57,246 bases of DNA from Acidobacteriota bacterium. GTDB taxonomy: Bacteria; Acidobacteriota; Vicinamibacteria; Vicinamibacterales; UBA2999. Position numbers and translations under genes: made by a program. Below are positions 1 to 34,575 of the stretch, piece by piece. Position 1 is the stretch's first letter, and every line of letters starts with the position of its first letter. The notes below the pieces were generated by a model. The model had not been told where the DNA came from. It was given only the letters and a program-made list of their open reading frames with translations, and made no database searches. The stretch spans positions 1 through 57,246 of the forward strand of contig JADZBZ010000214.1 of the NCBI GenBank assembly GCA_020851835.1. The letters are read 5' to 3'.

Positions 1-126
1 CGTCCGACGCTGGTGCCGGGGTCATCCGCCCTGTGGCGAGGGGGCGAAGATCGAACGCAGCACGGGCGTCAGCGTCTGATAACGTTGACTCCGTTACCTG
101 CGGACCCGTTCATAGCGACTATCGTC
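1..126 (+). repeat. Junction repeat, copy 1 (long form: 30-nt 5' extension + 96-nt core at 31..126); may be cut by the window edge
   Basis: nt 31..126 identical 96/96 to 4372..4467, 10412..10507, 18590..18685 and 34480..34575. nt 1..30 identical to 4342..4371. Confidence 0.95.
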
Positions 127-422
127 CTGCGCCCGCCGACGCGAAAGAGAAGATCGGCGTCGTCATCGCCATCGCGGAGGACGGCCTCACCTCCGCGGTG
201 AAGCGCGGCGAGAACAGCGGCCGCACCCTCGCGCACACGGCCGTCGCACGGCGACTCGAGTCGATCGGCGCGCTCGACCGCGACGCCTTCGCCGGCGAGG
301 GGCAGTGGAAGCTGAACGCCGCGTGGCGCCCCTCGTCGCTCCGGGTTATCGCCTTTCTTCAAGGGCAGACGTCCCATCGAGTGTACGGCTCGGCGCAGGC
401 GCGCCTGTCGTCGCCCCGCTGA
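127..422 (+). pseudogene. DUF1223-family protein, C-terminal ~95 aa only (5'-truncated at the repeat)
   Basis: Translation ...VKRGENSGRTLAHTAVARRLE...LRVIAFLQ... resembles the C-terminal part of DUF1223 proteins. It starts directly at the repeat's right end, with no N-terminal CxxC region. Confidence 0.55.
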
Positions 423-1152
423 GCACTCGTCGCCCCGGTATGAGCATCGGCACCATCCGCCGATAGTTCGCGTACGCGGAGCCGTGCTCGGCGACCAGGT
501 CGTGCTCCTCGAACTGGATCGCCAGGACGATGTAGGCGGTCGTCACGAGCGCGAAGACGAGATGCGCCAGCGTCATCGTCGGCGTCATCCAGAAGGCGAA
601 CAGGAACCCCAGGTACAGCGGGTGCCGGACGATGCGGTAGGGAGCCGGCGTCCGGAAGGCGATCGGCGAGTAGGGCTTGCCTCTGAGCGGCAGCCACACC
701 TGCCGCAGCCCGAACAGGTCGAAGTGGTTGATCAGGAACGTCACCACGAGCACCGTGCCCCATCCGCAGGCAAAGAGCGTCCACAGGATCGCCCGTGCGG
801 CGGCGTTGTCGACGGACCAGATCGAGCCGCCGAGAGGACGCCACTGCCAGAAGAGCAGCAGCAGGGCAAGGCTCGCGCAGAGGACGTAGGTGGAGCGCTC
901 GATGGCCCACGGCACGATCTGGGTCCAGCGCTCCTTGAACCACCGCCGCGCCATCACGCTGTGCTGGACGGCGAAGATCGTGAGCAGGCCGCAATCGATC
1001 GCCAGCGCGGCCGGCAGCGAGCCCTCGAGCGGGCCGTCGAGCCGCCGCGGTACCGCGAAGCCGCCCACGAATGCGATCGCGTAGAGGAACGTGACGAGAA
1101 ACACGAGGTAGGCGGCGAGGCCGTACCCGAAAAACAGCAGACGCTTGACCAT
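346..1152 (-). CDS. Polytopic membrane methyltransferase, ICMT/MddA-like family
   Basis: Starts MVKRLLFFGYGLAAYLVF. Multiple TM helices. C-terminal motif HFDLFGLRQ...YRIVRHPLYLGFLFAFW...EEHDL is typical of isoprenylcysteine/methanethiol S-methyltransferase-type enzymes. The longer ORF 346..2328 is an antisense artefact. Confidence 0.7.
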   Translation of the reverse strand: MVKRLLFFGYGLAAYLVFLVTFLYAIAFVGGFAVPRRLDGPLEGSLPAALAIDCGLLTIFAVQHSVMARRWFKERWTQIVPWAIERSTYVLCASLALLLLFWQWRPLGGSIWSVDNAAARAILWTLFACGWGTVLVVTFLINHFDLFGLRQVWLPLRGKPYSPIAFRTPAPYRIVRHPLYLGFLFAFWMTPTMTLAHLVFALVTTAYIVLAIQFEEHDLVAEHGSAYANYRRMVPMLIPGRRVLSGATTGAPAPSRTLDGTSALEERR

Positions 1153-1266
1153 GCGATCCTCCTTCGTCTGGAAGCATCGCCGGTCCACCGCCGTCCGCCC
1201 ATCGGCGGATTGTCCCGATTCAGGTAGAATCGCGCCCCTAGACATGAGGCAAATGTCCCGCCCGTC

Positions 1267-2343
1267 ATGACCGCACCCGGACGCATTCGCCAGCACGTCC
1301 GTTACGTCACCGCCGGTGACGGCACCCGCCTCGCGTGGGCCGAGGCCGGGGCCGGGCGTCCGCTCGTCAAGGCCGCCAACTGGCTCACGCACCTGGAATA
1401 CGAGCTGGACAGCCCGGTGTGGCGCCACTGGCTGCAGTTCCTCTCGTCGCATTTTCGATTCATCAGGTTCGACGAACGAGGCTGCGGCATGAGCGGATGG
1501 GGCGGAGGGCCGCTCACCGTGGAGCGTTGGACCGGGGATCTCGAGACGGTCATCGATGCGGCGCGCCTCGATGGGCCCGCGATCCTCCTGGGCATCTCGC
1601 AGGGTGCGGCGAGCTGCATCCAGTATGCGATTCGGCACCCGGAGCGCGTCTCGCACCTGGTGCTCTACGGTGCCTATGCGCACGGCGTGCTGCACCGCGG
1701 CACGCCCATGACCCGGCTCGCCTACCAGGCGATGGTGGATCTCGCGCGCGCCGCGTGGGGCACGGACAACCCGGCCTTCCGCCAGGTCTTCACCTCGCGC
1801 TTCATTCCCGGCGGGACGCCCGAGCAGCTGCAGTGGTGGAACGAGCTGTGTCTGAAGACGACTACTGGCGAGATCGCGGCCACCTTGTTCCAGGCGCGGG
1901 CGGAGGTTGACGTGTCGGCCCTGCTCGGCCAGGTGCGCGTCCCCACGCTGGTGCTGCACGGGACCGACGATCACATCGTGGCGATCGACGAAGCGCGCTT
2001 CCTCGCGAGCGGCATACCGGGCGCGGAGTTCGTCGAGCTCGACTCGCGCAACCACGTCCTGCTGGAACACGAGCCCGCGTGGGCGCGTTTCCAGGACGCG
2101 GTGCTGGACTTCGTGCAGCGTGGCGCGGTGGCGGGGAATTCTCCCTTCGCCGCGCTTTCGGCGCGCGAGCGGGAGGTGCTGGCCGCGATGGCAGACGGCC
2201 TGAGCAACACGGAGATCGCGGAGCGGCTGCAGATCAGCGAGAAGACGGTGCGCAACCACGCATCGAACGTCTTCGACAAGCTGGGCGTCTGGTCGCGCGC
2301 GCAGGCGATCGTCTTCGCGCGCGACCACGGATTCCGGCGGTGA
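1267..2343 (+). CDS. alpha/beta-hydrolase domain fused to a C-terminal LuxR-type HTH regulator
   Basis: N-terminus is alpha/beta-fold-like (LLGISQGAA nucleophile-elbow type motif). C-terminus REREVLAAMADGLSNTEIAERLQISEKTVRNHASNVFDKLGV is a classic LuxR/GerE HTH. Confidence 0.8.
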   Translation: MTAPGRIRQHVRYVTAGDGTRLAWAEAGAGRPLVKAANWLTHLEYELDSPVWRHWLQFLSSHFRFIRFDERGCGMSGWGGGPLTVERWTGDLETVIDAARLDGPAILLGISQGAASCIQYAIRHPERVSHLVLYGAYAHGVLHRGTPMTRLAYQAMVDLARAAWGTDNPAFRQVFTSRFIPGGTPEQLQWWNELCLKTTTGEIAATLFQARAEVDVSALLGQVRVPTLVLHGTDDHIVAIDEARFLASGIPGAEFVELDSRNHVLLEHEPAWARFQDAVLDFVQRGAVAGNSPFAALSAREREVLAAMADGLSNTEIAERLQISEKTVRNHASNVFDKLGVWSRAQAIVFARDHGFRR

Positions 2344-4206
2344 TCAGCGCTTCGAAATCCTGATGTTGCTGACGTACATCTGGTCGTTGGGCCCGGCCTG
2401 GCGCTGCAGGTCGAACGCGATCGCGTCGAACAAGACCGTTGCGGGAATCGCCTTCGGGTACTCTGCGATCTTCGCCTTGCCGATCGAGACACGCACCATC
2501 TCGCCGGCCCTCGTCACCGTCACGGTGATCCGGTTGTTCTGTTCCGTGTTGGAGAACCCCGGCACCTTCAACCACTTCGTCTCGTTGAAGTAGCCCGGCT
2601 CGCCGGGGAATTTCCCTTCGATCTCCGCTTCGCCGTCCCTGCCGCCGAACCCCGGGCGCAGCTTCACGGTGAAGAACGCGTCCTTGCCGCTGTTGGCGAC
2701 CCCCTTTGACATCTTGAAGATCATGCCCCGCGCCCCCCACGTGTAGTCACGGGCAGCCACGAGGTCGAAACTGATGGTCACGTCGCGCGGCAGCGGGCCC
2801 TTGAGCGCGGTCGGCGTAATCGTGAAGCCGCTGAGCGACGCCCAATGACCGTCGAGTCCTTTCAGCTCCGTCACAACGCTCGTCTTCCCGGTGTTATCGA
2901 GGTTGCTGCGCCACTTGAGGGGCGCCTTGCCGACGGGCGTCGCGGAGAAATCGTCGAAGAAATGCACCGCCGGGTCAGCGGCTCCGGCCCGGCTGGCCGC
3001 AGACGGCATGGCCGCAGACGGCATGGCCGCAGACGGCTCGGACGCGGTGGTCGGTGCGCCAGCGGGCCGCAGCGGCGCGTACGGCTGCCCGGCCACCTTC
3101 GCCGGGTCGAAGAAACGGTTGTAGAGATACTCGAAGTTGAACTGGTTCAGGACCGCGTCGTGGAGGTGCTTGCTGGCCGGCTGGTTCAGCTGTGCGGTCC
3201 ACGACACCACGATCCACTGCGGCGTGTCCCCCTTGCAGCGCTCGAGCGTCGCGGCATCCACCGTGTAGACAGGCAGCCGCATCGAACTGCCGCCGTTGCC
3301 AAGGAACGCATCGGGCGCGTTCTCGAGCATGATGTCCGGCTCGCTTCGCGCGATCTCGGCCACCTCCTGCAGGCGGCCCGCATACTTGACCCGGTTGGCC
3401 TCGAGCGCCGCGCGCCGCTTCGCGGTGGCCTCCTCGATGTAGGTCATGGAGCGCGCGATGCGCTGCGCGTCCCCCTGTTCCGCTTCCGTGATGCGCTTCT
3501 TCTCGAGCTCGTACTTGCGGGTGATCGCCACACCCAGCGCATCGAGGTATTCACCGCGGGTGAGCTTCACGAAGGGCAGCCGCCGGTCCTTCGCGATCAG
3601 CACGTACTTGCGGTTGCCGTTGACCGAGTTGCGCTGGAACCAGGCGGGGAACTGGCCGAGGAACGGATGGTTCGAGACGTCCGCCGCCTTCTCGAGCTCG
3701 GGGCCGAAACCCTGCTGCTCGAACGTGGGGATGGTGAAGTAGTAGCGCTCCGGCGTGCTGAGCGCCGCGGCCTCCTCGCCGAAGGGCCCGTTCACGATGA
3801 CGTTCCAGGTGAAGTGGCTGCTCGTGAACGGCTCGAGCTTCTTGTTGGCGCCGTACTTCAACTCGGTGTAGACCCGGGCGGCAACGCCGTAGCTCTGTGC
3901 TCTGGCCGTCGTGTTCTGGTTGTACGGGGTCAGCTTTTCAGCCATCACGACCGCCAGGTCGCCGAGCCCCCCGATCGGGCTGTAGCTCGCCTGCATCCAG
4001 TTGGCGAGCTCCATCGCGATCGTTCGCTGCGCGGCGGAGTACACGCGGTGATCGACCTTCAGCGGCGCGGTCGCCCCTTTGAAGTTGTAGATTTTCGCCC
4101 AGCCCAGCTCCTGGTCGGCGATGGACGCAGGGGGAATCGTCTGGGCGAGGAGCGGCACCGCGAGCGCGATCGCGAAGGAACCGATCAATCCGCTACGACC
4201 TTTCAT
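2344..4206 (-). CDS. Secreted hypothetical protein (signal peptide; C-terminal jelly-roll-like region)
   Basis: Start chosen at MKGRSGLIGSFAIALAVPLLAQ (signal-peptide-like). Long coherent ORF. No family recognised. Confidence 0.6.
   Translation of the reverse strand: MKGRSGLIGSFAIALAVPLLAQTIPPASIADQELGWAKIYNFKGATAPLKVDHRVYSAAQRTIAMELANWMQASYSPIGGLGDLAVVMAEKLTPYNQNTTARAQSYGVAARVYTELKYGANKKLEPFTSSHFTWNVIVNGPFGEEAAALSTPERYYFTIPTFEQQGFGPELEKAADVSNHPFLGQFPAWFQRNSVNGNRKYVLIAKDRRLPFVKLTRGEYLDALGVAITRKYELEKKRITEAEQGDAQRIARSMTYIEEATAKRRAALEANRVKYAGRLQEVAEIARSEPDIMLENAPDAFLGNGGSSMRLPVYTVDAATLERCKGDTPQWIVVSWTAQLNQPASKHLHDAVLNQFNFEYLYNRFFDPAKVAGQPYAPLRPAGAPTTASEPSAAMPSAAMPSAASRAGAADPAVHFFDDFSATPVGKAPLKWRSNLDNTGKTSVVTELKGLDGHWASLSGFTITPTALKGPLPRDVTISFDLVAARDYTWGARGMIFKMSKGVANSGKDAFFTVKLRPGFGGRDGEAEIEGKFPGEPGYFNETKWLKVPGFSNTEQNNRITVTVTRAGEMVRVSIGKAKIAEYPKAIPATVLFDAIAFDLQRQAGPNDQMYVSNIRISKR
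2995..3037. repeat. 15-bp tandem repeat, ~2.9 units (GGCCGCAGACGGCAT)
   Basis: Direct reading. Encodes SAAMPSAAMPSAA inside the 2344..4206 protein. Confidence 0.85.
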
Positions 4207-4341
4207 GGGTACTCCCTTTCGGCGGGGTCCGGCCGCCTCTGCACGCCGTGCGCATTGTGGCACAGACCACCCAGTGCGGAGTTGCTGTCCCGCCACCTGG
4301 CCCGTCACCCGATCAACGGCCGTCACCTGGCTTTTGGCCCA

Positions 4342-4467
4342 CGTCCGACGCTGGTGCCGGGGTCATCCGCCCTGTGGCGAGGGGGCGAAGATCGAACGCA
4401 GCACGGGCGTCAGCGTCTGATAACGTTGACTCCGTTACCTGCGGACCCGTTCATAGCGACTATCGTC
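4342..4467 (+). repeat. Junction repeat, copy 2 (long form; core 4372..4467)
   Basis: Identical to nt 1..126. Lies between the 5' UTR of the 2344..4206 gene and the 3' end of the TetR gene. Confidence 0.95.
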
Positions 4468-4522
4468 GGACGTGTGTCGATCCGCGCCCGAAGCGGTGTC
4501 TCCTGGCCGCGCAGGTCATCCG

Positions 4523-5185
4523 TCATGGCCTAGGCGAAGTCTTCCGTGTCCGCTTCGTCCGCCTGTGCGTGGGTCCCGAGTTCTTCGGGGCGTTCGAGAA
4601 CAGCAGCTCGACGTACCGCTTGAGGTGATCGACGCTTTCGATCGCCACGGCAACGTCGTTCTGGGCCTTCGCAAGGATGAAGGCGCCTTGCAGGACCGCT
4701 TGTGTGTGCGTCGCCAGGCTTTCTGCGGTCCAGCCGCCGGCGATGCCGTGACTCTTCATGGCGTCAGCGATGTCGTTGGTGAGCGTCCCGGCGTGACCAA
4801 AGATGCTGGCCGCGCAGGCGTCGCGGATCTCCGGATGCTCTCCGTAGGTCTCCTGGACCATGGTGCCGACCACGCACGTGAACTCCGGAATCTCGCCCCG
4901 GAGCAGCGCCCGTCGGAACTCGATGTAGGCAAGAACGCGATCGAGTGGATCTTTGGGGTCGTGGTAGGGCGCACGCTCGAAGAGCTCACCCGTCACGGCC
5001 GACCAGTGCTCGGCGGCGGCCACGCCGAGCGCATCCTTGGTTGCGAAGTAGTGGAAGAACGCGCCCTTGGTCACGCCCGCCCGCGCGCATACGTCGTCGA
5101 CCGTCGTCGCCGAGAACCCCTTCTCGCGAATCAATGACAGGGCGGCGTTGAGCAGTTTGAGCTCCGCGGCTCGGGCTTTGGGCAC
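4523..5185 (-). CDS. TetR/AcrR-family transcriptional regulator
   Basis: N-terminal HTH LIREKGFSATTVDDVCARAGVTKGAFFHYF is canonical TetR. GTG start. Confidence 0.85.
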   Translation of the reverse strand: MPKARAAELKLLNAALSLIREKGFSATTVDDVCARAGVTKGAFFHYFATKDALGVAAAEHWSAVTGELFERAPYHDPKDPLDRVLAYIEFRRALLRGEIPEFTCVVGTMVQETYGEHPEIRDACAASIFGHAGTLTNDIADAMKSHGIAGGWTAESLATHTQAVLQGAFILAKAQNDVAVAIESVDHLKRYVELLFSNAPKNSGPTHRRTKRTRKTSPRP

Positions 5186-5190
5186 GGTCT

Positions 5191-5216
5191 ATACATACAA
5201 ACTAGTTGGTATGTAT
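5191..5216. promoter_or_regulatory. AT-rich near-perfect 26-bp palindrome, putative TetR operator/promoter
   Basis: ATACATACAAACTAGTTGGTATGTAT has one mismatched pair. It lies 6 nt upstream of the TetR start and is an AT island in GC-rich DNA. Confidence 0.6.
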
Positions 5217-5402
5217 GTCAAGGCGAACTGTCGAACCAGCTGCCAGCCCCTGCGCGACTGGGTGGATGAGGCCTGGCGACGTTGGCTCACGCTTGCCGGA
5301 AGCGAGACGAGTCCGAGTGAGCCAGGCTACCTGGCCGGGGCCGTACACGCTGCAGGATGCACCGCCAGCGAGGTGACCCAACTCCTGGCGCTGGGGTGAG
5401 CC

Positions 5403-8132
5403 CTACTCGTCGCGCAGCGCTTCGATCGGCTGGATGCGCAAGCCCTGCCGCAACGGACCAATCGCCGCAATTACGCCGATCGTCATCGTGAGCAAGACGA
5501 CGGCCGGCAGCAGCATCGCGCGGTAGTTCTGTATCATGTCGCCCTCGAGCATCTGCTCCAGGCCAACGGCGCCGATCACGCCGAGCATCGCGCCGGCGCC
5601 CAGTTGGGCGAGGACGCGCGAGAAGATGCCGAGGAGGATCCGGTTACGGTTGGCGCCCAGCGCCGCGCGAATGCCGATTTCGCGCCGCCGCCGCGCCACG
5701 GTGAACGACATCAGCGAGTAGATGCCGGCCGACGAGAGCAGCAGCACGCTCACGATCACCAGCCCAAGGCTGACGCCGATCAGCCGCATCATGCCCTGAG
5801 CCTGCCGGAACGCGATGGCGGCGGTGGACACGTCGAGCACCAGCAGGTCCGGATCGACCGACGCGCTGAGGTCGCGTAGCGGCTCGGCAAGCGCCGCCGG
5901 ATCGCCGGTGCGCGCCCGCACATTGAGACGGGCAGGATACAGGTCGCTGGCAGCGACGGCGTGGTAGACCCGACCTTCCGATTCATCGTCGAACGACCCG
6001 GGCACAGGGAAGTTGGGCACCACGCCGACGATTTCATACCAGCGCTCGAACACGACGTGCTGGGACGGCGCCTCGCGGCTCCGCCCGACGTACTTGATTC
6101 GGCGGCCGAGTGGATTAGCGCCACCGAAGACCTGATCGACCAACCCGCGGCTGACCAGCACGCCAGGCGTCATACCGGCGGTGTCCGCCGACGCATCGGC
6201 GGGTGTCAGGCCGCGCCCGATGCTCACCGGCACGTCGAACGCTGAAAAGAAGTTGGCGGTGACGCGGTTGAACCGCACCAGGGTGCCGCGCTTGGTGCCC
6301 TCGACGATGTTGTAGTCGACCGGGTCGATGGGCACCGGCACGCCTTCTGCCTCGACCACCAATGCAAGTTCGCGGCCAGGACTGGTCAGCGAGAACGTCA
6401 CCTCACGCACGCGTGCGTCGTCTCTCAAGCGGCGTTCGATGTCCGCAAGGGCGCTGCCATAGCGGTCGGCAAAGGCCTGGTCAACCGTCTCGGTCGGCGC
6501 GGCCACGGCGCGTTCGAGCGACAGGCTTGCGTTGAGGAACTCGGCGGTGGCGTAGCCGCCGCCAGACTCGATGCGGAGCGCGCTCCAGGCAAAATAGGTC
6601 GCCATCGGCAGCAGCGCGACCGTCACCGCCACCTGCGCCACGATCAGCGCCGTCCATAGCCGGCCCATCTGCATGCGCGATCCGCTGCCGGGTGACAGCG
6701 TCTGCAGGCGCGTGTGGACCTGGGGACCGGTCGCCTTGAGCGCCGGCGCCACGCCGACAATGGCCGCCGCCAGCAGCGTCAGCCCGACGACGTAGATCAC
6801 GGTACTGGTCTGAAGCTCCGGCGAGAACCAGAAGGGCCAGGCGCCGACCATGGTGCCCATGGCGAGCAGTGCGCCCTCGAGCTGGCGGAGCCCGACGGCG
6901 GTGAGGACGATACCGATGGCCGCCGACACGCTCGCCAGCATCAGCGCTTCGACGAACAGCTGCGCCACGATCCGGCGCCGGCTGGCGCCGAGTGCCCCTC
7001 GCACCGCAATCTCGCCTTGTCGCGTCGCGGTGCGGGCGTAGACGAGGATGGCCACGTTGACGCAGATGAGTATCAGTAACAGCACGATTGCAGTCTCGAT
7101 GGCATAGATCGCAAGAGCGCTGTCAGGGTCGTCGAGTTCGCTGAAGGCGTGGGCGTAGGCCAGCACCGTGGGGCGCAGGTGCTGGTGGGTTGCTGGCCAG
7201 GCCCCCGCGAGACGCTGGCCGATGGCCGCAAGCTCGGCCTGCGCACTCTCGAGCGTGGCTCCGGGCGCAAGCCGTCCAAACACGTTGATGCCGGGGCCGC
7301 TGCGCGGCGCCGAGGCGACCGCGTCGAGACGCCACGGGATCCAGAAGCTGTGATAGGTGGGGAAGCCGAACCCCTCTGGCATCACGCCGACGATGGTGTA
7401 GGCCGTGGCGCCAAGGTCCACCGCCCGGCCGACGATGTCCGGATCCGCCGCGAAACGGCGGACCCACTCGTCATGACCAATCACGAGCGCGTCGGGCGCG
7501 TCCGGGCGCTCGTCGTGCGGCAGCAGCGTGCGGCCGCGATACGCGGGGACGCGGGCGGCGCGAAACGCCGACGCCGAGATCTCGGCCACCATCACGACCT
7601 CGGGCGGCCGGCCGTCGACGATCAGGTTGCGCTGGACGTCGCGTGACACGCTGAAGTCTTCGATGGAGGTCGCGTCGCGCCACGCCTCGAGGTCGGCGAG
7701 CAGGCGGAACTCGCGATTGTTGGTCGAGGCGTCCCAGTTGACGAGTGAGACCAGCCGGTCGCTCTCGGGCAACGGCAGCGTGGTGCCCATCATCATCGAG
7801 CCGATGGTGAAGGCGCCGGCGGCGATGGTGATGCCGACCGACATGCCGAGCACGCTGACCAGGCTCAGGCCCGGATAGCGGAGCAGCATGCGCCAGGCCA
7901 GCGTGAAGTCGAGTGCCGAGAACGCCGGGCCCTGACGGAGCCGGCGCTGGCGCCGTCGCTCACCGAGGCCGGTGCCGAGCACGTTGAGGCAGGCGACGAG
8001 CGCGAAAGAGAGGCGAGCGTGTCCGTCTCGCGCGGCGAGCGCTCGCGCGAACGTTTCGGTCATCTCGGCCGCGTAGCGCTCGCGATGCCGGCGGGGAAAT
8101 GCGCGGAGGGCCAGGTGGTAGAGGCGTGTCAT
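5403..8132 (-). CDS. ADOP-family permease (duplicated MacB-periplasmic-domain/FtsX permease)
   Basis: 909 aa. Two FtsX-type C-terminal modules (...EIAVRGALGASRRRIV... and ...EIGIRAALGANRNRIL...). Ends ALRDE. Translationally coupled to the upstream PadR. Confidence 0.85.
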   Translation of the reverse strand: MTRLYHLALRAFPRRHRERYAAEMTETFARALAARDGHARLSFALVACLNVLGTGLGERRRQRRLRQGPAFSALDFTLAWRMLLRYPGLSLVSVLGMSVGITIAAGAFTIGSMMMGTTLPLPESDRLVSLVNWDASTNNREFRLLADLEAWRDATSIEDFSVSRDVQRNLIVDGRPPEVVMVAEISASAFRAARVPAYRGRTLLPHDERPDAPDALVIGHDEWVRRFAADPDIVGRAVDLGATAYTIVGVMPEGFGFPTYHSFWIPWRLDAVASAPRSGPGINVFGRLAPGATLESAQAELAAIGQRLAGAWPATHQHLRPTVLAYAHAFSELDDPDSALAIYAIETAIVLLLILICVNVAILVYARTATRQGEIAVRGALGASRRRIVAQLFVEALMLASVSAAIGIVLTAVGLRQLEGALLAMGTMVGAWPFWFSPELQTSTVIYVVGLTLLAAAIVGVAPALKATGPQVHTRLQTLSPGSGSRMQMGRLWTALIVAQVAVTVALLPMATYFAWSALRIESGGGYATAEFLNASLSLERAVAAPTETVDQAFADRYGSALADIERRLRDDARVREVTFSLTSPGRELALVVEAEGVPVPIDPVDYNIVEGTKRGTLVRFNRVTANFFSAFDVPVSIGRGLTPADASADTAGMTPGVLVSRGLVDQVFGGANPLGRRIKYVGRSREAPSQHVVFERWYEIVGVVPNFPVPGSFDDESEGRVYHAVAASDLYPARLNVRARTGDPAALAEPLRDLSASVDPDLLVLDVSTAAIAFRQAQGMMRLIGVSLGLVIVSVLLLSSAGIYSLMSFTVARRRREIGIRAALGANRNRILLGIFSRVLAQLGAGAMLGVIGAVGLEQMLEGDMIQNYRAMLLPAVVLLTMTIGVIAAIGPLRQGLRIQPIEALRDE

Positions 8133-8491: not shown

Positions 8492-8789
8492 CGTATTCGG
8501 CTTAGACTATAGTTGATATCGAATAGTTCCAGCGATGGCGGTGCGCCGAACGAGCCCACGGCGTCGCGCTCATCCCGCGGTGGGCGCCACCCAGAGGCCC
8601 GCCGCCAGCGCCGGCCCCATCTCGATCAGCACCATCGCGACGTAGAGCACCAGCGTCTTTACCGTGGTCGGGACGCGGCTCGGTGGTCGTGATTCCTGGT
8701 GTGGTGGCGGTAGAGTGGATAGCCGTCGCCACCTCTACCCGGTGCGGGCACTCACAGGGCGCGGCGGCAGAGGACGGGAGGACACCCTC

Positions 8790-25324: not shown

Positions 25325-25327
25325 GCT

Positions 25328-25376: not shown

Positions 25377-25452
25377 CGCAGAACGGGCACGTCGGCCTCG
25401 CCGAGGTGCCCGGGCGACAGGGCGGTCGACGCCGCGTGCGGCCGGGGACCAA

Positions 25453-27648: not shown

Positions 27649-27816
27649 GACGAGCCTTCCTCTGCCTGTGCCCCGAACGCAGGCTGGGTTCAGGCTTTGC
27701 GGGTCCGCTTCGGGTGCGGCGGAACAGGGCTGTGGCCGCGAGCGTACCTGATGGGGACCTCCGGGCCGTTACGCTCGAGAACGAAGCGGCACCTGAGCCA
27801 TCGTAGCACCTCTGCC

Positions 27817-27865
27817 GGGGCCTGGCACGAGCGGGCCGTTTTTGACGCAGTTCCTGCGTACTGCC
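27817..27865 (+). repeat. 49-nt direct repeat B
   Basis: 41/49 identical to 25328..25376. Lies ~170 nt 5' of the 25453..27648 gene start and at the broken 3' end of the D-aminoacylase remnant. Confidence 0.8.
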
Positions 27866-27894
27866 GGCCTTTGCCTTATCTCGTCCCCCGATAC

Positions 27895-28865
27895 CCAGGC
27901 CCGCGCAGCGCACGACATCGGCGAAGGCGCCGGGCCGGACCACTCCTCTGTCCCAAAGGCGCATCCCCTGGGCAGGGAGTGAGGTCATCTTGCGAACGGC
28001 CTCCTTCAGCGTGAGCAGCCGCTCCTCACGCACATACTTGCCGAGAATCCGCGCCGCGGACCCCCACGCGCGTGGGTGGACGCCGGCCGTCGGCGGCGGG
28101 CTGTCCGGCGCCATGCCTCCCGAGTCGGTGCCGCGCATCACCAATGGATGTCTCAGCGCCGCCTTCACATCGTCCTCGTTCATGAAGAACATCACACCGC
28201 TGCCGGTGGTGTCGTCCTGGCCGATGATGTCCATGAGGACGTCGAGCGGATCCTTCTGCTCCGCCTTGGCGATGTCGTCGAGCGTGCGGCCCTGATACTT
28301 CTTCAGTTCCGTGCGGCTGACGGCGGAGACGAGGTTGCCGGCGGCGCCGCCCGACCCGACGTACTGGTTCTCCCAGGCGGTGGACGGCGTCAGAATCTCC
28401 GCCTTGATCTTCGCGCGTCGCTGGATCGGTCAGCCGCTTGACCATGGCGTCGCGACCGCCTTCCCGCGCCCACACCGGCAGGCTTGAGTCTAGCGGGTTG
28501 CTGCCGGCGACGTACGGGTACTGGTCCGCGGCGATATCGAGGCCGTCCTGCCGCGCCCGTTCGATGCGCTGCAGCACCGCGGGCATGCGGCCCCAGGTCT
28601 GCTTGTAGGCGGTCTTGAGGTGATGGATGGTGGCCGGCACGCCAGCCTCGCGCGCGATGCGGAAGACCTCGTCCAGGCTCTGCTCGATCTCGTCGGCCTC
28701 GGAGCGCTGGTGGGTGATGTCGCTGCCGCCGAACCGTCCGGCGACCTTCGCCAGTGCCACCAGTTCGTCGGTGCGCGCGAAGCGGTCTGGCTGCCCGCCG
28801 CATGAGTCGATACACCCTGCACAGCGCGGCCGCGTGACGGGCCAGCCCGAGGCGTGTCCCGCCAT
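27895..28865 (-). pseudogene. N-acyl-D-amino-acid deacylase (D-aminoacylase) remnant, truncated at both ends and frameshifted
   Basis: ...TDELVALAKVAGRFGG...GVPATIHHLK...DQYPYVAGSN... then another frame ...FFMNEDDVKAALRHPLVMRGTDSGG...HPRAWGSAARILGKYVRE...MTSLPAQ... Confidence 0.7.
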
Positions 28866-28900
28866 CTCGAAACGTGCGCCGCCATGGCATCAGCACCAAC

Positions 28901-29023
28901 CCTCCGGGCGGTGCGGGTGGTCATCGGCGCTGTGGCGCGGGCAAATCCTGACGAATCAGGCCGTGCCAGCGTCTGATAACGTTGACTCCGTTACCTGCGG
29001 ACCCGTTCATAGCGACTATCGTC
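28901..29023 (+). repeat. Junction repeat, copy 5 (mosaic long-form variant)
   Basis: 28967..29023 (57 nt) is identical to core positions 40..96. 28901..28966 aligns to the long-form 5' part at only ~65% by eye (e.g. GGTCATCGGCGCTGTGGCG vs GGTCATCCGCCCTGTGGCG). Confidence 0.85.
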
Positions 29024-29065
29024 TCGCCGGCGCTGGGTGGCTGCTGCAGCACTACGACCACTTGA

Positions 29066-29647
29066 AGGATACGCCGACCGGGTTCGTCGCCGATTGGCCG
29101 GTTCATGAATCGCCAATCCATTGTCGTTGCCACAAATGCTGCCAACCCATCGGACCTCGTGCCGCTGATCCGAACGGAACTGCAGCAACTCGATCCCCTG
29201 GTGCCTATCGAGGTTTCGTTCCTGCCACAGGTGGTGTCCGACTCACTGAGCCGGCAGCGGCTCGGGATGTTGTTGATGGTGCTGTTCGGCACAGTCGCGC
29301 TGCTGCTGGCTGCGATCGGCGTCTATGGTGTGTTCGCCTACGCAACGTCACAACGCAGTCGCGAAGTCGCGATCCGGCTCGCCATCGGCGCGACGCCCGC
29401 GGAAGTGTTCCGCCACACCTTCGTGCGCGGGCAACTCATGGCCGTGGTCGGAGTACTCGGTGGGGTGATCCTGGCATACGCCGCCGGACGGGTGCTCACA
29501 GGCTCGCTCTATCAGATTCGAGCCGCCGACCCTCTCGTGCTGATCGCGTCGACGGCTATCGTGGCGGCTGTCGCCGCGCTGGCGACGGCGTTGCCGGCGC
29601 GTCGCGTCGCCCGGGCCGATCCGTGCGTGACCCTCAGGGACGAATAG
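29066..29647 (+). pseudogene. ADOP-family permease, C-terminal ~190 aa only (last FtsX module)
   Basis: ...SQRSREVAIRLAIGATPAEVF...RADPCVTLRDE* equals the terminal module of the intact ADOP genes. No upstream part. Confidence 0.75.
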
Positions 29648-29724
29648 CGGCCCCGTCGACGACCGACTCACTGCCATCGAGATGGCGCAGCCTGGGTGCG
29701 GACGGGGGACGACCGCCGGCAGAT

Positions 29725-29961
29725 TCAAGCTGGTACAGCTTCACGCATCGGTCGAGTGCTCGGTGGCGGTAGATCCTTGCCCGCACGCTGAAGTTGTTCG
29801 ACTTCCTCAATGACCAGCTCGCGAAGTTGACGGTATGCGTCCTCCTCCGCGCCGGCATGACAGACACCACCCCATGGAAACAGGTCCGGGCAATAGCCGA
29901 CGTACGCGCCGTCCTCCTCATGCCAGCGAACGAACTTCAGATACCGATCCTCCGGTTTCAT
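29725..29961 (-). CDS. hicB: HicB-family antitoxin
   Basis: YLKFVRWHEEDGAYVGYCPDLFPWGGVCHAGAEEDAYRQLRELV is an N-terminal HicB fold motif. Overlaps hicA. Confidence 0.75.
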   Translation of the reverse strand: MKPEDRYLKFVRWHEEDGAYVGYCPDLFPWGGVCHAGAEEDAYRQLRELVIEEVEQLQRAGKDLPPPSTRPMREAVPA

Positions 29962-30158
29962 TTCGCAGCCTCCCGGATTGCCCTTCGTACCTGCTTCTCC
30001 TGGTAGTCCTTCGCGTCGTCGCCGTCGTTTCCGCTGAGAATCACCGATCCGGCCAGCTTCGGATGCCGGAACTTCTTGTGTCCGCCTTTACCGCCTCCCA
30101 CGAGCGAGAAGCCGGCTCGTTCGAGGTCCGAAATCAACTGGCGAATCTTGCGCGGCAC
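29958..30158 (-). CDS. hicA: HicA-family mRNA interferase toxin
   Basis: 66 aa. KIRQLISDLERAGFSLVGGGKGGHKKFRHP is the HicA signature. GTG start. Confidence 0.75.
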   Translation of the reverse strand: MPRKIRQLISDLERAGFSLVGGGKGGHKKFRHPKLAGSVILSGNDGDDAKDYQEKQVRRAIREAAK

Positions 30159-30309
30159 ACACCGATCAGTATAGCCCGCCCTATCGAACCTCCCTTCCTC
30201 TCTCGCCCAAATGAACCGTGACGAAGGATGCGCCTGACTTGAACCCTTTTGCCGATCTCGTCGTCCAAGGATATGGTCTGCAATGCAGGCTATCAGGGGA
30301 CGAGGCGAC

Positions 30310-30642
30310 ATGGCGAAAACACCCTACCTGGGCGAGTTCGAATACGCGGTCATGCTGGCCGTCATCCGGCTCGGCGATGAGGCCTACGGCGTCCCGATTC
30401 GCGAGCTCATCGAGGCGCGGACGGGCCGGCCAGTCGCGCGCGGGGCGCTCTACACCGGCCTCGAACGCCTGGAGATCAAGGGCTGCCTGCGCTCCCGCAT
30501 GGGCGATCCCATGCCGGAGCGCGGCGGCCGCGCGCGGCGATACTTCACGGCCACACCGCTCGGGCTTCGCGCGCTCAGGAGCACGCACGCGGCGCTCTCC
30601 AACCTGTCGAAGGGCCTCGAGGCCATCCTGGAGCAGCCATGA
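30310..30642 (+). CDS. PadR-family transcriptional regulator
   Basis: GEFEYAVMLAVIRLGDEAYGVPI...GALYTGLERLEIKGCL. An alternative start at 30283 is possible. Confidence 0.85.
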   Translation: MAKTPYLGEFEYAVMLAVIRLGDEAYGVPIRELIEARTGRPVARGALYTGLERLEIKGCLRSRMGDPMPERGGRARRYFTATPLGLRALRSTHAALSNLSKGLEAILEQP

Positions 30643-33332
30643 CGGCCCCACCGACCCCTCCGGCGCTTGCCGAGCGTGTGCTTCGCGCTGCCATTCGCGA
30701 CCCGGAGTGGCGGGAGGCGGTCAGCGGCGACCTGTGCGAGGAGTTTGACGACATCGCCCGCCGCTACGGGCTCCCGGCCGCAAGGCGCTGGTACTGGCGT
30801 CAGGCGGTGGGACTCGGCGCCCGATTCGTCGCGGGCCGCGTCGTGCCCCGCGCGGCGCCGCAGCGCTGGCAGGTGCGGGACCGGGACTTGGAGCCGCGGG
30901 CCTCGTGGACGGCCTTCCGCGACATCGCCTATGCCTGGCGGGCCATCGCCCACCGTCCGGGCGTGTCCTTCGTCATCGTCGCGACCCTGGCGCTCGTGCT
31001 CGCCGCCAACGCGACCGTGTTCAATCTGGTCGATGCGCTGTACCTGCGTCCCTTCCGGTTTCCGGGCGTCGACAGGCTCGTGGTGGTCGCCTCGGCTGCC
31101 GACAACGGCGCCGAGACCGACTACAACTCGGTCGCGCCGGCCGACTTTCGCGACTGGCAGCGCGAGAGCACCACCATGTCGCTGCTTGCAGCCGCGGCCT
31201 TCTGGGACCCGAACATGTCCGGCGTGGACGAACCGGAGCAGGTGCCGGGGTTCCTGGTCAGTCCGGCGTTCTTCCGTGCGATTGGCGCCGAGCCGCTCAT
31301 CGGGCGGACGTTCCTCGATTCCGAAACCATTCCCGGCAGCCACCGCCGCGTCGTGGTGTCGCACGGTCTGTGGGCGCGCCGATTCGGTTCGGACCCCCGC
31401 CTGGTCGGACGAACGATCCGCTTCGACGGCGAGCCGTACGAAGTGGTGGGCATCATGCCGCCGGGCCTGGCCCTTCCCTACGGCGCGCAGGCGTGGGCGC
31501 CGCTCGCCTACACCGAGGAACAGTGGGCCGAGCGCGGGCGGGGCGGGTTGCTCGTCATCGGACGCGTCGCCGACGGGCAGACGGTCGGATCCGCACGCGC
31601 CGAGATGACGTCGATCGTCGGCCGGCAGCGTCACGAGCATCCCGAGACCAACGCGCAGCGGGACCTCACCCTCGCCTCCTTCACGCGCGCCCTCGCGGAC
31701 GGCTACGCCGCGCCACTGCTCGCCATCTGGCAGGCCGCGGCCTTCCTGCTCCTCGTCATCGCATGCGCCAACATCGCCAATCTCCTGCTGGCTCGCGGCG
31801 CGGAACGCCACCAGGAGTTTGCCGTCCGCATGGCGCTCGGCGCCGGCCGCTGGCGAGTCGCGCGGCAGTTGCTCTTCGAGGGTGCCCTGCTCACCTTCGC
31901 CGCCCTCGTCGTGACCGTGCCGCTGGCGATGGCCGGTGCGGAAGCGACGCGGCGCGGCATGCCGCCGGGACTTCACCGGTGGGTCCCCGGCATCGACTTC
32001 ATCCGATTCGACCCCTCGTCGCTGGCCGTCATGGCAGGGCTCGGTGCCGTGGCCACGCTGGTCTTCTCCTGGCTCCCGGCGCTCCAGGCCTCCGGCGCCG
32101 CCGTCTCCCAGTCGCTTCGCGACGGCGGTCGCACCATTGCCGCCGGTCGGTCACGCGGATGGCTGGGGACGGGACTCGTCGTCGGACAGGTCGCCCTGGC
32201 CGTCTGTCTCGTGGCGGGCGCCGGCCTCGTGCTGGGCGGGATCGACAAGGCCGTGAACGGCGCGCTGGGCTTCGACAAGCAGCACGTGCTGACGGCCGAG
32301 ATGCGTCTGGACGGGCCCGCCTACCAGGAGCCGGAACAGCGGCGGCAGTTCGTCGAGCGTGTCTTCGACCGGCTCCGGGGCATGCCGGCCGTGGAACGGC
32401 TGGCGGCTTCCTCGTCGCTGCCGTATTCGCCGGGCGGCGGCCTGCTCTCCCGGCCGATCTATCCCGAAGGTCTCGATCTGACGGAGGCCGAGGCTCGTCC
32501 CGCGCGCCTCCACCGCATCACGCCCGACTACTTCGACGTGCTCCGCATGCCCATCGTCGAGGGACGACGGTTCACCGAGGCCGATCGACCCGGGGCGCCA
32601 TCGGTGGCCATTGTCAGCCGGAACTTCGGCGAGCGGTACTGGCCCGGCGAATCGGCCGTGGGCCGGCGATTCCGCACCGCGCCGGATGGGCCGTGGCTGG
32701 AGATCGTCGGCGTGGCCGGCGACATCGTGCAGGACATGCTGCTCGCCCGCGAATGGCCGGCGTTCTACACGCCGGCGGCGCAGGAGCCGACCTTCGCGAC
32801 GGCGTTTGGCATACGGACCGGGAGCGATCCTCTGGCCGTGAGCGGTGAGCTCCGCCGGGCCATTTCGGCCGTCGATCCCGATCTGCCGCTGCTGCAGCTC
32901 CGCAGCCTCGAACAGGTGGTGGCCGAACGCGCCGGCGGCATCGCGCACCTGGCCCGGCTCCTCGGCGTGATGGGCGCCGTGGCACTCCTGCTGGCCCTGA
33001 TGGGCGTCTACAGCCTGATGGCGTACGCCGCGGCGCGACGCACGCAGGAGTTCGGCGTCAGGATGGCGCTCGGCGCCACACGCTGGCAGGTGGTGCGCCT
33101 GTCGCTCAGGCAGGCGGCGGTCCTGACCGGACTTGGCCTCGTCGCCGGCGCGGTCCTAGCCGCCGCGCTTAACCGCGTCATGTCCTCGACGCTCTTCGGG
33201 CTGGTCTCGTTCGACGCCGCCGCGATCGCCGTCATGACGCTGGCGATTGGCGCAACCGCACTGGTGGCCGGGTGGCTGCCGGCACGGCGCGCCGCGGATC
33301 TCGATCCGACCGTTGCGCTCCGGATGGAATGA
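30639..33332 (+). CDS. ADOP-family permease (duplicated MacB/FtsX)
   Basis: 897 aa. Same architecture as the other two intact ADOP genes. Ends ALRME. ATGA overlap with the PadR gene. Confidence 0.85.
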   Translation: MTAPPTPPALAERVLRAAIRDPEWREAVSGDLCEEFDDIARRYGLPAARRWYWRQAVGLGARFVAGRVVPRAAPQRWQVRDRDLEPRASWTAFRDIAYAWRAIAHRPGVSFVIVATLALVLAANATVFNLVDALYLRPFRFPGVDRLVVVASAADNGAETDYNSVAPADFRDWQRESTTMSLLAAAAFWDPNMSGVDEPEQVPGFLVSPAFFRAIGAEPLIGRTFLDSETIPGSHRRVVVSHGLWARRFGSDPRLVGRTIRFDGEPYEVVGIMPPGLALPYGAQAWAPLAYTEEQWAERGRGGLLVIGRVADGQTVGSARAEMTSIVGRQRHEHPETNAQRDLTLASFTRALADGYAAPLLAIWQAAAFLLLVIACANIANLLLARGAERHQEFAVRMALGAGRWRVARQLLFEGALLTFAALVVTVPLAMAGAEATRRGMPPGLHRWVPGIDFIRFDPSSLAVMAGLGAVATLVFSWLPALQASGAAVSQSLRDGGRTIAAGRSRGWLGTGLVVGQVALAVCLVAGAGLVLGGIDKAVNGALGFDKQHVLTAEMRLDGPAYQEPEQRRQFVERVFDRLRGMPAVERLAASSSLPYSPGGGLLSRPIYPEGLDLTEAEARPARLHRITPDYFDVLRMPIVEGRRFTEADRPGAPSVAIVSRNFGERYWPGESAVGRRFRTAPDGPWLEIVGVAGDIVQDMLLAREWPAFYTPAAQEPTFATAFGIRTGSDPLAVSGELRRAISAVDPDLPLLQLRSLEQVVAERAGGIAHLARLLGVMGAVALLLALMGVYSLMAYAAARRTQEFGVRMALGATRWQVVRLSLRQAAVLTGLGLVAGAVLAAALNRVMSSTLFGLVSFDAAAIAVMTLAIGATALVAGWLPARRAADLDPTVALRME

Positions 33333-33336
33333 GTCG

Positions 33337-33588
33337 TCAGCCCTGGTTGGGCGTCTCGGCGGGTGGTGCCGGCGGCACGGCGTTCGGGCCCGGCGCGGTT
33401 TCCTCCGCCTGGAAGTTGCACAGCCGGTGCGAGCCGTCGCAGAACGGGCGCCGCTTGGACTGCCCGCAGCGGCACAGGGCGAACGGCTTCTTGCTGAGGA
33501 TGTACTCCTCGCCGTTCCAGTCGATGAGCTTCACGTCCTCGCCCTCGACGAGGAGCGAGCCGTTCTGTCGGACCTTGATCGTGATCAT
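33337..33588 (-). CDS. CDGSH-type iron-sulfur domain protein
   Basis: ...CRCGQSKRRPFCDGSH... is the CDGSH 2Fe-2S motif. Confidence 0.8.
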   Translation of the reverse strand: MITIKVRQNGSLLVEGEDVKLIDWNGEEYILSKKPFALCRCGQSKRRPFCDGSHRLCNFQAEETAPGPNAVPPAPPAETPNQG

Positions 33589-33596
33589 GTCGGCGA

Positions 33597-34479
33597 CTAT
33601 CCTTTTTGCATCGCGGACAGGAAGTCGGCGTTCGACTTCGTCTTGCCCATTTTGTCGAGCAGCAGTTCCATGGTCTCGACCGGCGACAGCGGGTTGAGCA
33701 CGCGCCGCAGCACGTAGACGCGCTGCAGGTCTTCCTTCGGGATGAGCAGCTCCTCCTTGCGCGTGCCGCTCTTGAGGGTGTCGCTGGCCGGGAAGACGCG
33801 CTTGTCGGAGAGCTTCCGATCGAGGTTGATCTCCATGTTGCCCGTGCCCTTGAACTCCTCGAAGATCACGTCGTCCATGCGGGAGCCGGTGTCGATGAGC
33901 GCGGTGGCGATGATGGTGAGCGAGCCGCCCTCCTCGATGTTGCGCGCGGCCCCGAAGAAGCGCTTCGGCTTCTGCAGGGCGTTACTGTCGAGACCGCCGG
34001 AGAGCACCTTGCCGGACGGCGGGATCACCGTGTTGTAGGCGCGCGCGAGGCGCGTGATCGAGTCGAGCAGGATGAGCACGTCCTTCTTGTGCTCGACGAG
34101 GCGCTTGGCCTTCTCGATGACCATCTCGGCCACCTGCACGTGCCGCTGCGCCGGCTCGTCGAAGGTCGAGGAGATGACCTCGCCGTCCACCGACCGCTGC
34201 ATGTCGGTCACCTCCTCCGGCCGCTCGTCGATGAGCAGGACGATGAGGTAGACCTCCGGGTGGTTCTTCGCGACCGACTGCGCAATGTTCTGCAACAGCA
34301 TCGTCTTGCCGGTGCGCGGCGGCGCGACGATGAGGCCGCGCTGCCCCTTGCCGATGGGCGTCATCAGGTCCATGACGCGCGCCGACAGGTTCTCCGCATC
34401 GGTTTCGAGTTTGAGACGCTCCTGCGGATAGAGCGGCGTCAGTTCTCGAAGAACAGCTTGTCGCGCGCCTGGTCCGGCG
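33597..34479 (-). pseudogene. rho: Transcription termination factor Rho lacking the N-terminal RNA-binding domain, with a 1-nt frameshift near 34441
   Basis: ...[26 protein letters not shown]...[33 protein letters not shown]...[19 protein letters not shown]... aligns by memory to E. coli Rho from about residue 130 to the C-terminus. The 5' end abuts repeat copy 6. Confidence 0.85.
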
Positions 34480-34575
34480 CTGTGGCGAGGGGGCGAAGAT
34501 CGAACGCAGCACGGGCGTCAGCGTCTGATAACGTTGACTCCGTTACCTGCGGACCCGTTCATAGCGACTATCGTC
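34480..34575 (+). repeat. Junction repeat, copy 6 (96-nt core)
   Basis: 96/96 identical to the other cores. Sits between the rho remnant (-) and an IS701-like transposase remnant (+). Confidence 0.95.

Follow-up and report, generated by a model that had tools for sequence, protein, structure and literature searches.

The origin end (oriIS) of insertion sequences (IS) of the IS91 and ISCR type is short: the last 82 bp of IS91 together with the adjacent tetranucleotide are sufficient as an origin (PMC13181058), and for ISCR1 an oriIS region of approximately 100 bp is enough for transposition (PMC13023784). The oriIS sequence is GTGGTTTATACTTCCTATACCC in ISCR1 (PMC13023784) and GCGGTTGAACTTCCTATACC in ISCR27, where it lies 236 bp after the stop codon (PMC8894482), the corresponding distance in a sphingomonad IS91 being 167 bp (PMC5737581). 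Among trapped IS801 insertions, 26% were fragments of the right end (229, 360 or 679 nt in length), all of which began with a characteristic tetranucleotide; one-ended transposition was invoked to explain them, and IS801 also mobilized fragments of an adjacent gene (PMC3189936). Here we describe a dense array of short repeats in a 57,246-nt contig of an Acidobacteriota bacterium of the order Vicinamibacterales (JADZBZ010000214.1, assembly GCA_020851835.1; the whole of this stretch is referred to below as the window). The repeat unit, a 96-mer found next to truncated genes, is very probably the oriIS end of a Vicinamibacterales IS of the IS91/ISCR type, with the solo fragments most likely being products of rolling-circle transposition and the mismatched flanks perhaps a secondary consequence of the same element.

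The key to this identification is a contig from another metagenome (L045), in which the repeat runs on leftwards into a transposase gene. The window form and L045 are identical at 95 of 96 positions over the 96-mer and to 98.4% over 184 nt, and the element ends in L045 263 nt after the stop codon of an intact open reading frame (ORF) of 488 amino acids. The encoded protein matches the Pfam families Zn_Tnp_IS91 (PF14319; 2e-18, 66.6 bits, cut-off 26.3) and Y2_Tnp (PF04986; 2e-25, 90.4 bits, cut-off 20.9), a motif of the HUH type (HLH) can be read in its sequence, and its best NCBIfam match is ISCR_clade_Ia (NF052416; 7.6e-96, 321.7 bits). Plasmid proteins annotated as ‘IS91 family / ISVsa3 transposase’ match it with 39% identity over 95% of its length. 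Homologues number in the thousands, with the close ones named from metagenome-assembled genomes (MAGs) of Vicinamibacterales/Acidobacteriota; the Y2 domain is present in the 120 closest homologues listed, and the zinc-binding domain in most of those too. Moreover, the end of the repeat in the window, CCCGTTTATCGCGACTATCGTC, has the framework GTTTAT-N5-CTAT in common with the ISCR1 oriIS. We place the element in the IS91/ISCR group because of these transposase domains, the position and motif of its oriIS, the lack of inverted repeats and target duplications and the occurrence of right-end miniatures; it is nearest to the ISCR branch, as an unnamed relative that stays under the curated cut-offs. 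With the minimal origins of IS91 and ISCR1 measuring 82 bp and approximately 100 bp, a length of 96 nt suits a minimal functional end.

Full-length copies were found on contigs of the nearest homologues at six loci, three of which are one locus (L113-115), so that there are four independent insertions (L045, L095, L096 and L113-115). These have identical ends and define an element of 2,058 bp, which consists of a left end GAC(C/G)TGA(A/C)C..., a 316-nt leader, the gene for the 488-amino-acid HUH/Y2 transposase and 263-275 nt of 3' non-coding DNA with the right end ...CCCGTT(C/T)AT(A/C)(G/C)CGACTATCGTC. Homology among the insertions halts at ...C(G/T)(A/C)CTATCGTC, directly followed by flanking DNA, and the flanks of the four insertions show no target duplication. 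Between the two ends, GACCTGAACC... and ...CGACTATCGTC, the terminal inverted similarity is short and imperfect (approximately 8 of 13 matches), and the terminal GTC of the element could derive from the target. A conserved TGATAA was considered as the transposase stop and rejected, as ORFs ending there are wrong-frame and GC-rich and the true stop lies 263 nt upstream of the end. At a further locus (L055), Zn_Tnp_IS91 and the start of Y2_Tnp are found in a frameshifted gene upstream of the element. A preliminary description of the window, made from its letters alone, had pointed out that inverted repeats, a target duplication and a nearby transposase are missing; this was upheld, and all three are hallmarks of IS91/ISCR elements. 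It had also considered that the 96-mer might be no more than one end of an IS whose intact copies lie elsewhere, and such copies, full-length and of the IS91 family, are essentially what other metagenomes turned out to contain.

Within the window, repeat finding and alignment yielded eight copies (table 1). Five of them are identical at 96 of 96 nt (31-126 and 4372-4467, which are the right-hand parts of two longer fragments, and the three fragments of exactly 96 nt), the other three are variants, and the terminal 20-nt pattern that occurs eight times in the window did not occur in any of 100 shuffles. Seven of the eight copies are on the plus strand, and their right ends are spaced by 4,133 to 8,178 nt. 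The number, identity and strand bias of the copies as well as their spacing agree with the preliminary description; three variants, however, extend further than it had stated (to 184, 234 and approximately 393 nt), which gives fragment lengths of about 61, 96 (three copies), at least 126, 184, 234 and about 393 nt. The 234-nt copy, whose left 177 nt resemble the subfamily represented by L098 and whose last 57 nt are exactly those of the main type, is a recombinant of the two. All copies are confined to the 35 kb that adjoin an island-like stretch, and the core-gene part at 40-57 kb is free of them; the G+C content of the window is approximately 69%. Their perfect identity marks the five main-type copies as the result of recent events.

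These copies are right ends only. With sensitive blastn and tblastn, the four full-length elements and their transposases match the window only at IS positions of at least 1650, and no left-end fragments were found with any of the four. The sole trace of a transposase of this family consists of its last ~34 codons, which are part of the inverted copy (tblastn; residues 455-488 at 20340-20239). On the left, the 184-nt fragment breaks at 4284 where L045 continues into the transposase gene, and CTG(T/C) starts four distinct truncation points, i.e. those of the 96-, 184-, 393- and 234-nt fragments, the last one reading GCTGCC after a flanking g. The final 450 nt of the L045 parent contain CTGT at just two places, 183 and 96 nt before the end, and the main-type fragments use exactly these two as boundaries. 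The left end of the 96-mer was also examined as a copy of the true left terminus (terIS) and rejected, since the full-length left end is GACCTGA..., not CTGTGG. On the right, only ...CGACTATCGTC is common to all eight ends, and the invariant right boundary proposed earlier holds for this sequence and not beyond it, the copy at 24830 reading CCTAGCGACTATCGTC and the inverted copy TATCCCGACTATCGTC. Nor does the sequence after the boundary differ every time, as had been claimed: two pairs of copies share 6-7 nt past their right ends, G(G/C)ACGTG at 4468-4474 and 10508-10514, and TCGCCG at 18686-18691 and 29024-29029. This sharing exceeds chance; a preference for certain targets, imprecise nicking or a conversion tract extending beyond the end may account for it.

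The same picture emerges for the family as a whole. A scan with a degenerate terminal 20-mer, which covered one genome per species and the metagenomes of the Joint Genome Institute (JGI), detected related elements almost only in contigs of Vicinamibacterales/Acidobacteriota; the remainder were obvious chance matches, and viral contigs gave one chance match only. Four blocks recur across diverged subfamilies, GGGCGAA, GGTC(T/C)GATAA, TTC(C/T)GTTGACC and CCCGTT(T/C)AT(C/A)(G/C)CGACTATCGTC. Many copies start with CTGT after a G and finish with ...CTATCGTC, and of 45 non-redundant copies, 27 have CTGT at a distance of 88-99 nt from the right end. Among the 29 non-redundant copies for which 700 nt or more of upstream sequence is available, only 3 have transposase homology there; solo ends prevail in the family and account for approximately 90% of the copies in other Vicinamibacterales contigs.

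Some of these loci deserve a separate mention. Small tandem duplications inside family copies occur in L096 (5620-5787; a 52-nt unit that starts exactly from CTGTGG), in L038 (terminal 37 nt duplicated at ~1917-1990) and in L058 and L069 (left module duplicated in both), which suggests repeated nicking or re-initiation at such sites. L055 contains a ‘sandwich’ (526-5572) of the frameshifted full IS, an intact Ser/Thr kinase-PD40 gene that follows from the oriIS end, and a truncated right-end copy 3,186 nt downstream. In L020 (6756-7825, compared with window 36207-37183), a Vicinamibacterales MAG from Lake Mendota, an oriIS end is joined directly to GTCT, and the VapBC-type region after it has 98% identity to window 36214-37183; at 36207, the window has the matching GTCT with other DNA to its left. 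The window may here have kept the right-hand half of an unoccupied target site.

The genes next to the copies are indeed truncated, as Pfam profile coordinates confirm for the DUF1223, quinone oxidoreductase, aldo/keto reductase (profile positions 160-205 of 291 only, after 24890), ADOP, TolB-like and rho neighbours that the preliminary description had listed (table 1). The IS701 remnant was confirmed as well, and no IS701 inverted repeats were found that would explain 34576-36206 as a simple IS insertion. By contrast, an amidohydrolase remnant reported to be 3'-cut and to abut the element is 5'-cut, because it retains its C-terminal part (profile 319-442 of 472), and has no contact with the element. 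The genes to the left of the copies at 4284 and 24830 look intact. The rho fragment, which is 93-95% identical to Rho from Vicinamibacterales MAGs, still has its native context on the 3' side: the order PadR, ADOP, CDGSH, rho is that of a relative with a 1.29-Mb contig (75%, 57%, 87% and 93% identity, respectively). The rho chunk, at least, is chromosomal DNA in which the left boundary of a 96-mer interrupts the gene at codon 163.

Table 1. Right-end fragments of the element in the window, with truncated genes and an unrelated IS remnant beside them (position, strand and supporting match).
Feature	Position	Strand	Match or support
Right-end (oriIS) fragment, at least 126 nt long, truncated by the contig start	1-126	+	100% identity to 4342-4467; 98% to full-length IS in L045
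DUF1223 3' remnant, directly after the first copy	127-419	+	Pfam PF06764, profile 118-202 of 202
184-nt right-end fragment (‘long form’), left boundary GCTGTCC after flanking t	4284-4467	+	98.4% identity to L045 2291-2474 and L042 28-211
96-nt right-end fragment, left boundary CTGTGGCG after flanking g (as in all 96-mers), right end CGACTATCGTC	10412-10507	+	Logan contig L093 enters 28 nt from left flank
TolB-like gene fragment, PD40 repeats only, N-terminal part absent	18204-18589	-	
96-nt right-end fragment between 5'-cut TolB-like gene (-) and 5'-cut quinone oxidoreductase (+)	18590-18685	+	Alignment, profile coordinates
Quinone oxidoreductase without N-terminal ADH_N domain	18686-19630	+	ADH_zinc_N and ADH_zinc_N_2 only
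~393-nt degenerate right-end fragment of a second subfamily, left boundary CTGTGGCGGGG after flanking c	19990-20382	-	68-83% identity to 3' parts of IS in L095, L045, L098 and L096
Short diverged right-end fragment, ~61 nt recognizable, then 46-amino-acid aldo/keto-reductase fragment	24830-24890	+	
234-nt mosaic right-end fragment	28790-29023	+	83% identity to IS_L098 1850-2085; 100% to 18629-18685
ADOP-type permease remnant after 29023, C-terminal FtsX domain only	29066-29647	+	
rho, residues 163-452 of ~452 only	33600-34479	-	93% identity to Rho of Vicinamibacterales relative; gene order as in L110
96-nt right-end fragment cutting rho at codon 163	34480-34575	+	
IS701-family transposase remnant, N-terminal ~150 residues, unrelated to the repeat	34615-35226	+	NCBIfam NF033540, profile 2-153 of 363; Pfam DDE_5

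An important issue is how such solo fragments form. The analysis shows the element, its full-length parent, the restriction to right ends and the boundaries at CTG; the fragments are most likely miniature rolling-circle products. Transposition would start at oriIS, via a single-stranded circle initiated by the HUH transposase, and would stop early at internal CTGT-type sites, thereby leaving ‘miniature’ fragments behind. The transposase would come in trans from a full-length copy elsewhere, i.e. a trans-acting partner in the host organism is assumed, and the 96-nt unit itself would be mobile. The mismatched truncated flanks would then be secondary consequences of the same element. Alignment of the flanks revealed no target-site duplication at the window copies, and this as well as the absence of inverted repeats is due to the IS91/ISCR family making neither. 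Of the options considered in the preliminary description, a non-autonomous or one-ended rolling-circle element thus proved correct in kind, its derivation from IS200/IS605 did not.

Several observations, however, weigh against this interpretation. Simple insertion by itself accounts neither for the 6-7 nt common to two pairs of copies past the end, nor for the orientation of the truncated neighbours, which point away from the element in seven of seven cases, nor for the fact that no copy is flanked on both sides by one and the same gene. The left end of the full-length element, GACCTGA..., differs from the CTGT motif at the fragment boundaries. No conserved target tetranucleotide was found after the right end (...GTC), where the first flank base is mostly C or T; in characterized members of the IS91 family, the target tetranucleotide at oriIS is CTTG, GTTC or GTCC. 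Blastn and tblastn detected no full-length copy and no transposase of the element's family in the window, in line with the preliminary description, and the transposase relatives for which contigs were retrieved (P0121-P0124, P0126), including four that are full-length or nearly so, all come from outside the SRR112940xx runs of the window. When 120 nt of left and 120 nt of right flank were joined for 49 copies, no pair of empty and filled sites was found among all fetched loci. Furthermore, rho is cut inside its own native locus and an intact rho of the same organism was not found, with the best full-length Rho being 94-95% identical and the members of the ten best clusters no closer. Finally, the L045 transposase scores below the curated cut-offs of both relevant NCBIfam models (321.7 versus 925 bits for NF052416; 103.2 versus 125 bits for the IS91 model NF033538); it is related to both ISCR clade Ia and IS91 but falls outside either named model.

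While the fragments are most likely miniature rolling-circle products, the array of mismatched chunks between them can be explained in different ways. One serious candidate, which we would nevertheless not call probable, is decay in situ: independent miniature insertions into one chromosomal region would have been followed by deletions, with the remaining segments still in their native order. Such deletions would arise by homologous recombination between co-oriented copies or by transposase cuts at an oriIS junction and a downstream site. The native PadR-ADOP-CDGSH-rho context on the 3' side of rho fits this scenario, co-oriented identical repeats are substrates for deletion, and a retrospective analysis of IS801 found most fragments to have come from reorganization and not from one-ended transposition (PMC3189936). 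In addition, the adjoining integrase fragments, toxin-antitoxin modules and IS701 remnant suggest a decaying island. On the other hand, rho, in most cases a single-copy and essential gene, would have lost its 5' part, many separate insertions and deletions would be needed within 35 kb, and synteny with relatives is checkable for the rho block only (for the 2344-4206 gene, the closest available relative is 74% identical and has different neighbours).

Somewhat more doubtful, if still possible, is rolling-circle capture, by which a chunk with an oriIS fragment on its right would have been copied by one-ended read-through and placed at an existing oriIS, with intact originals elsewhere. Read-through past a weak internal terminator would copy the left-hand chunk, with insertion or recombination at another oriIS to follow. 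Precedents are available: one-ended transposition represents 1-14% of IS91/IS1294 events (PMC13181058), IS801 moves adjacent gene fragments (PMC3189936), for ISCR28, a gene ‘sandwiched’ between two successive oriIS is on record (PMC12772301), and ISCR1 occurs in tandem 5.1-kb units (PMC13023784); a model of this type has been put forward for both the ISCR28 and the ISCR1 arrangement. The arrangement of IS, intact kinase gene and truncated right-end copy in L055 is of this type; all copies in the window but one are co-oriented; a truncated rho would be harmless as a duplicate; and the window differs from L020 by extra DNA exactly at the meeting point of oriIS end and GTCT. Yet, a chunk on the terIS side of its own oriIS implies that the element was inside rho at the donor site too, and a search for an intact identical rho did not reveal donor copies. 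Likewise, the window contains no circle junctions or duplicated chunks, and the left ends of the chunks have no terminator-like motif in common.

More speculatively still, the solo 96-nt oriIS modules could be active themselves, each serving as a portable origin as well as a terminator for the next origin downstream, such that the co-oriented array would package arbitrary chromosomal chunks, among them pieces of housekeeping genes such as rho, as mobilizable units. We regard this as unlikely; if it were so, the array would be a chromosomal, non-clinical counterpart of resistance-gene capture by ISCR elements, and a bacterial parallel to gene-fragment capture by Helitrons, with mini-ISCR elements reminiscent of MITEs (miniature inverted-repeat transposable elements) far outnumbering their autonomous parent in the Vicinamibacterales.

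It is improbable that the array is an assembly chimera, in which the assembler hopped between sites or strains at a dispersed repeat and created an artificial order of chunks; in particular, hopping is unlikely to explain the array entirely. In its favour, the window comes from a metagenome, the 184-nt copy is longer than a k of 127, and one and the same left flank is combined with different right flanks in other metagenomes, as well as the reverse (L024, L042, L045, L054). Logan contigs (k=31) from at least nine runs (SRR11294019 to SRR11294036), found by exact-protein look-up and matching the window at 100%, correspond to 4439-10439 (L093), 98-4313 (L118) and 29000-33860 (L123), with all TetR contigs ending 84 nt past the gene. 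Since each of these same-run contigs stops 24-29 nt inside a repeat copy, linkage across any copy is without independent confirmation. L118 stops 29 nt into the 184-nt form, which implies that the same samples contain this form in one or more further contexts; L123 breaks inside rho at ~33860, probably due to strain variation. The junctions between flanks and repeats, however, are reproduced independently in other runs, so that the truncated genes are real whether or not the order of the chunks is. For the chimera considered in the preliminary description, this means that the junctions are present in the Logan contigs and the chunk order across repeats is covered by none of them. Moreover, unrelated flanks are also found at the diverged copies at 24830 (~61 nt) and 19990-20382, which cannot cause hopping; the copy at 28790-29023 is between unrelated sequences as well, but its 57 nt identical to the main type permit a hop in principle. 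The contig begins with exactly 126 nt of repeat, which points to a k=127 graph, and 127-mers span a 96-nt repeat.

Finally, it is very improbable that the repeat is an altogether different element, such as an attC or other site-specific site, a palindrome-associated transposable element (PATE) or omega-RNA module of the IS200/IS605 type, or a structured non-coding or regulatory RNA: co-oriented repeats of ~100 nt, a sharp 3' boundary followed by variable sequence and short palindromes, e.g. TAACG-N7-CGTTA, would fit these, but full-length copies are contiguous with an IS91-family transposase gene, and integron integrase, TnpA(Y1) and TnpB are not linked to the repeat. The Rfam run that the preliminary description had suggested found only the signal recognition particle (SRP) RNA at gathering thresholds in the window and nothing credible on the element, either at gathering threshold or at E<=1. 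No tRNA or tmRNA was found, RNAalifold on 15 diverse copies gave no consensus structure and no covariation, and single-sequence folds were not consistently better than shuffles, which led us to reject an RNA gene or riboswitch. A consensus scan did not detect an outward sigma-70-like promoter. An IS200/IS605 derivative was rejected because of the lack of a linked Y1 TnpA or TnpB, mutually unrelated left flanks and no Rfam match, and a classical MITE because of the lack of terminal inverted repeats and target-site duplication. For an integron attC or cassette array, there is no dyad symmetry across the element (HattCI was not run) and the units contain truncated genes; the only integrase sequences in the window are phage-type fragments at 37-39 kb that are not linked to the copies. 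The recombination-site reading of the preliminary description was therefore not borne out in its integron-like form, as no integron integrase is linked.

Apart from the array, the window has some other features worth recording. Three PadR + ADOP (MacB_PCD/FtsX) pairs (5403-8491, 20639-23651 and 30283-33332) lie within the same 35 kb as the ADOP fragment at 29066-29647, and these paralogous pairs could themselves promote recombination. The island-like stretch at 35200-39500, just upstream of asd-lysC-dapA, comprises genes for a PIN-domain-like toxin and a ribbon-helix-helix-like antitoxin (36367-37321), a ParE/RelE-like gene and two phage-type integrase fragments (37574-37784 and 38646-38859) that are 83% identical to each other, with these gene labels being read from translations without a Pfam scan. 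A 129-nt duplicate (88% identity) of the 3' end of vapC (PIN), 11341-11469 versus 17868-17996, stands alone between a histidine-kinase gene and the TolB-like fragment. A 55-nt repeat (84% identity; 25325-25379 versus 27814-27868) beside the gene for a large CarboxypepD_reg/fn3 protein may be a shared regulatory or leader sequence. A gene for an AhpD/CMD-like ‘peroxidase-related enzyme’ (12685-13617, minus strand; TIGR01926 on both halves) is interrupted by a single in-frame TGA (13027-13029), which takes the place of the second Cys of a CxxC motif (CSF*LKSH) and is followed by a hairpin, GCCGCAGUUGCGGC, that starts 12 nt downstream; this TGA is either a candidate selenocysteine codon or the mark of a pseudogene. 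In the core-gene part, a small bacterial SRP RNA (47591-47689; Rfam RF00169, 65.5 bits) directly upstream of dnaX, ybaB and recR (labels again from translations, no Pfam scan) represents ordinary core synteny, and a 42-nt unit is tandemly duplicated at 53140-53222 (perfect to 98%) in a long minus-strand ORF.

Overall, the element likely represents an unnamed and uncatalogued ISCR/IS91-like clade in a major, little-studied phylum of soil and freshwater, given that both NCBIfam models stay below cut-off and the nearest annotated plasmid relatives (ISVsa3/ISCR2) share no more than 39% identity with it. Members of this clade occur in nature mainly as solo origin ends of ~96 nt, which are missed by gene callers, IS finders and human readers and which break short-read assemblies; contig breaks and apparent truncations of genes in Vicinamibacterales MAGs become explicable once such ends are recognized. 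The capture of antibiotic-resistance genes is attributed to ISCR elements, yet to our knowledge the transposition of these elements has hardly been shown experimentally. The array could serve as a non-clinical system for studying how one-ended rolling-circle transposition reshapes chromosomes and whether two successive oriIS define a mobilizable unit. The findings are notable in that 96-nt solo origins abound in a phylum that is understudied, that the array is unusually dense and that ISCR-type capture could be examined here outside of resistance islands. A possibly new mechanism, as envisaged in the preliminary description, is not supported: the repeat is an IS91/ISCR-type end, right-end fragments of such elements are documented (PMC3189936), and the present case adds one more example to a kind of mobile DNA that is already known.

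Among known systems, the IS801 miniatures of Pseudomonas syringae pv. phaseolicola (Bardaji et al. 2011, PMC3189936) are similar in being right-end-only fragments of a rolling-circle IS with a recurrent left motif, without inverted repeats or target duplications, served by a transposase in trans and carrying adjacent gene fragments along. They differ in length (229-679 nt), in their GAAC-type motif and in having been trapped experimentally, whereas the fragments described here are 96 nt long, start with CTGT, reside in an acidobacterium and are mobile by inference; also, unlike in IS801, solo ends far outnumber full copies. With the IS91 prototype, the element has in common zinc-binding and Y2 HUH domains, distinct oriIS and terIS ends, the absence of target duplications, one-ended transposition and a short oriIS (82 bp are sufficient in IS91), but it lacks orf121 and a conserved CTTG/GTTC after its end, and it scores below the NCBIfam IS91 cut-off. 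Outside of this family, Vibrio VCR integron arrays are likewise punctuated by co-oriented, near-identical repeats of ~100 nt; here, however, integrase and attC symmetry are absent, spacing is 4-8 kb rather than ~0.5-1 kb, genes are truncated and the repeat is contiguous with an IS91-type transposase gene. Helitrons resemble the present family in the dominance of non-autonomous copies, asymmetric ends, the absence of inverted repeats and target duplications and the presence of host gene fragments, but are eukaryotic, encode a Rep/helicase protein and capture DNA at the 3' terminator side, with capture in our case being a proposal. Closest of all are ISCR1, ISCR2/ISVsa3, ISCR27 and ISCR28, as indicated by the best match to ISCR clade Ia and the identity to ISVsa3-type proteins, by an oriIS ~230-260 nt after the stop codon with GTTTAT...CTAT and variable adjoining DNA, and by oriIS-only remnant copies that flank other genes (as a ‘sandwich’ or in tandem units). 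In contrast to these ISCR elements, the Vicinamibacterales element has a transposase far below the curated clade cut-off (322 versus 925 bits), is chromosomal and environmental, comes without resistance genes, has a clear left end in its full-length copies, and between its solo ends there are mostly truncated housekeeping or accessory genes.

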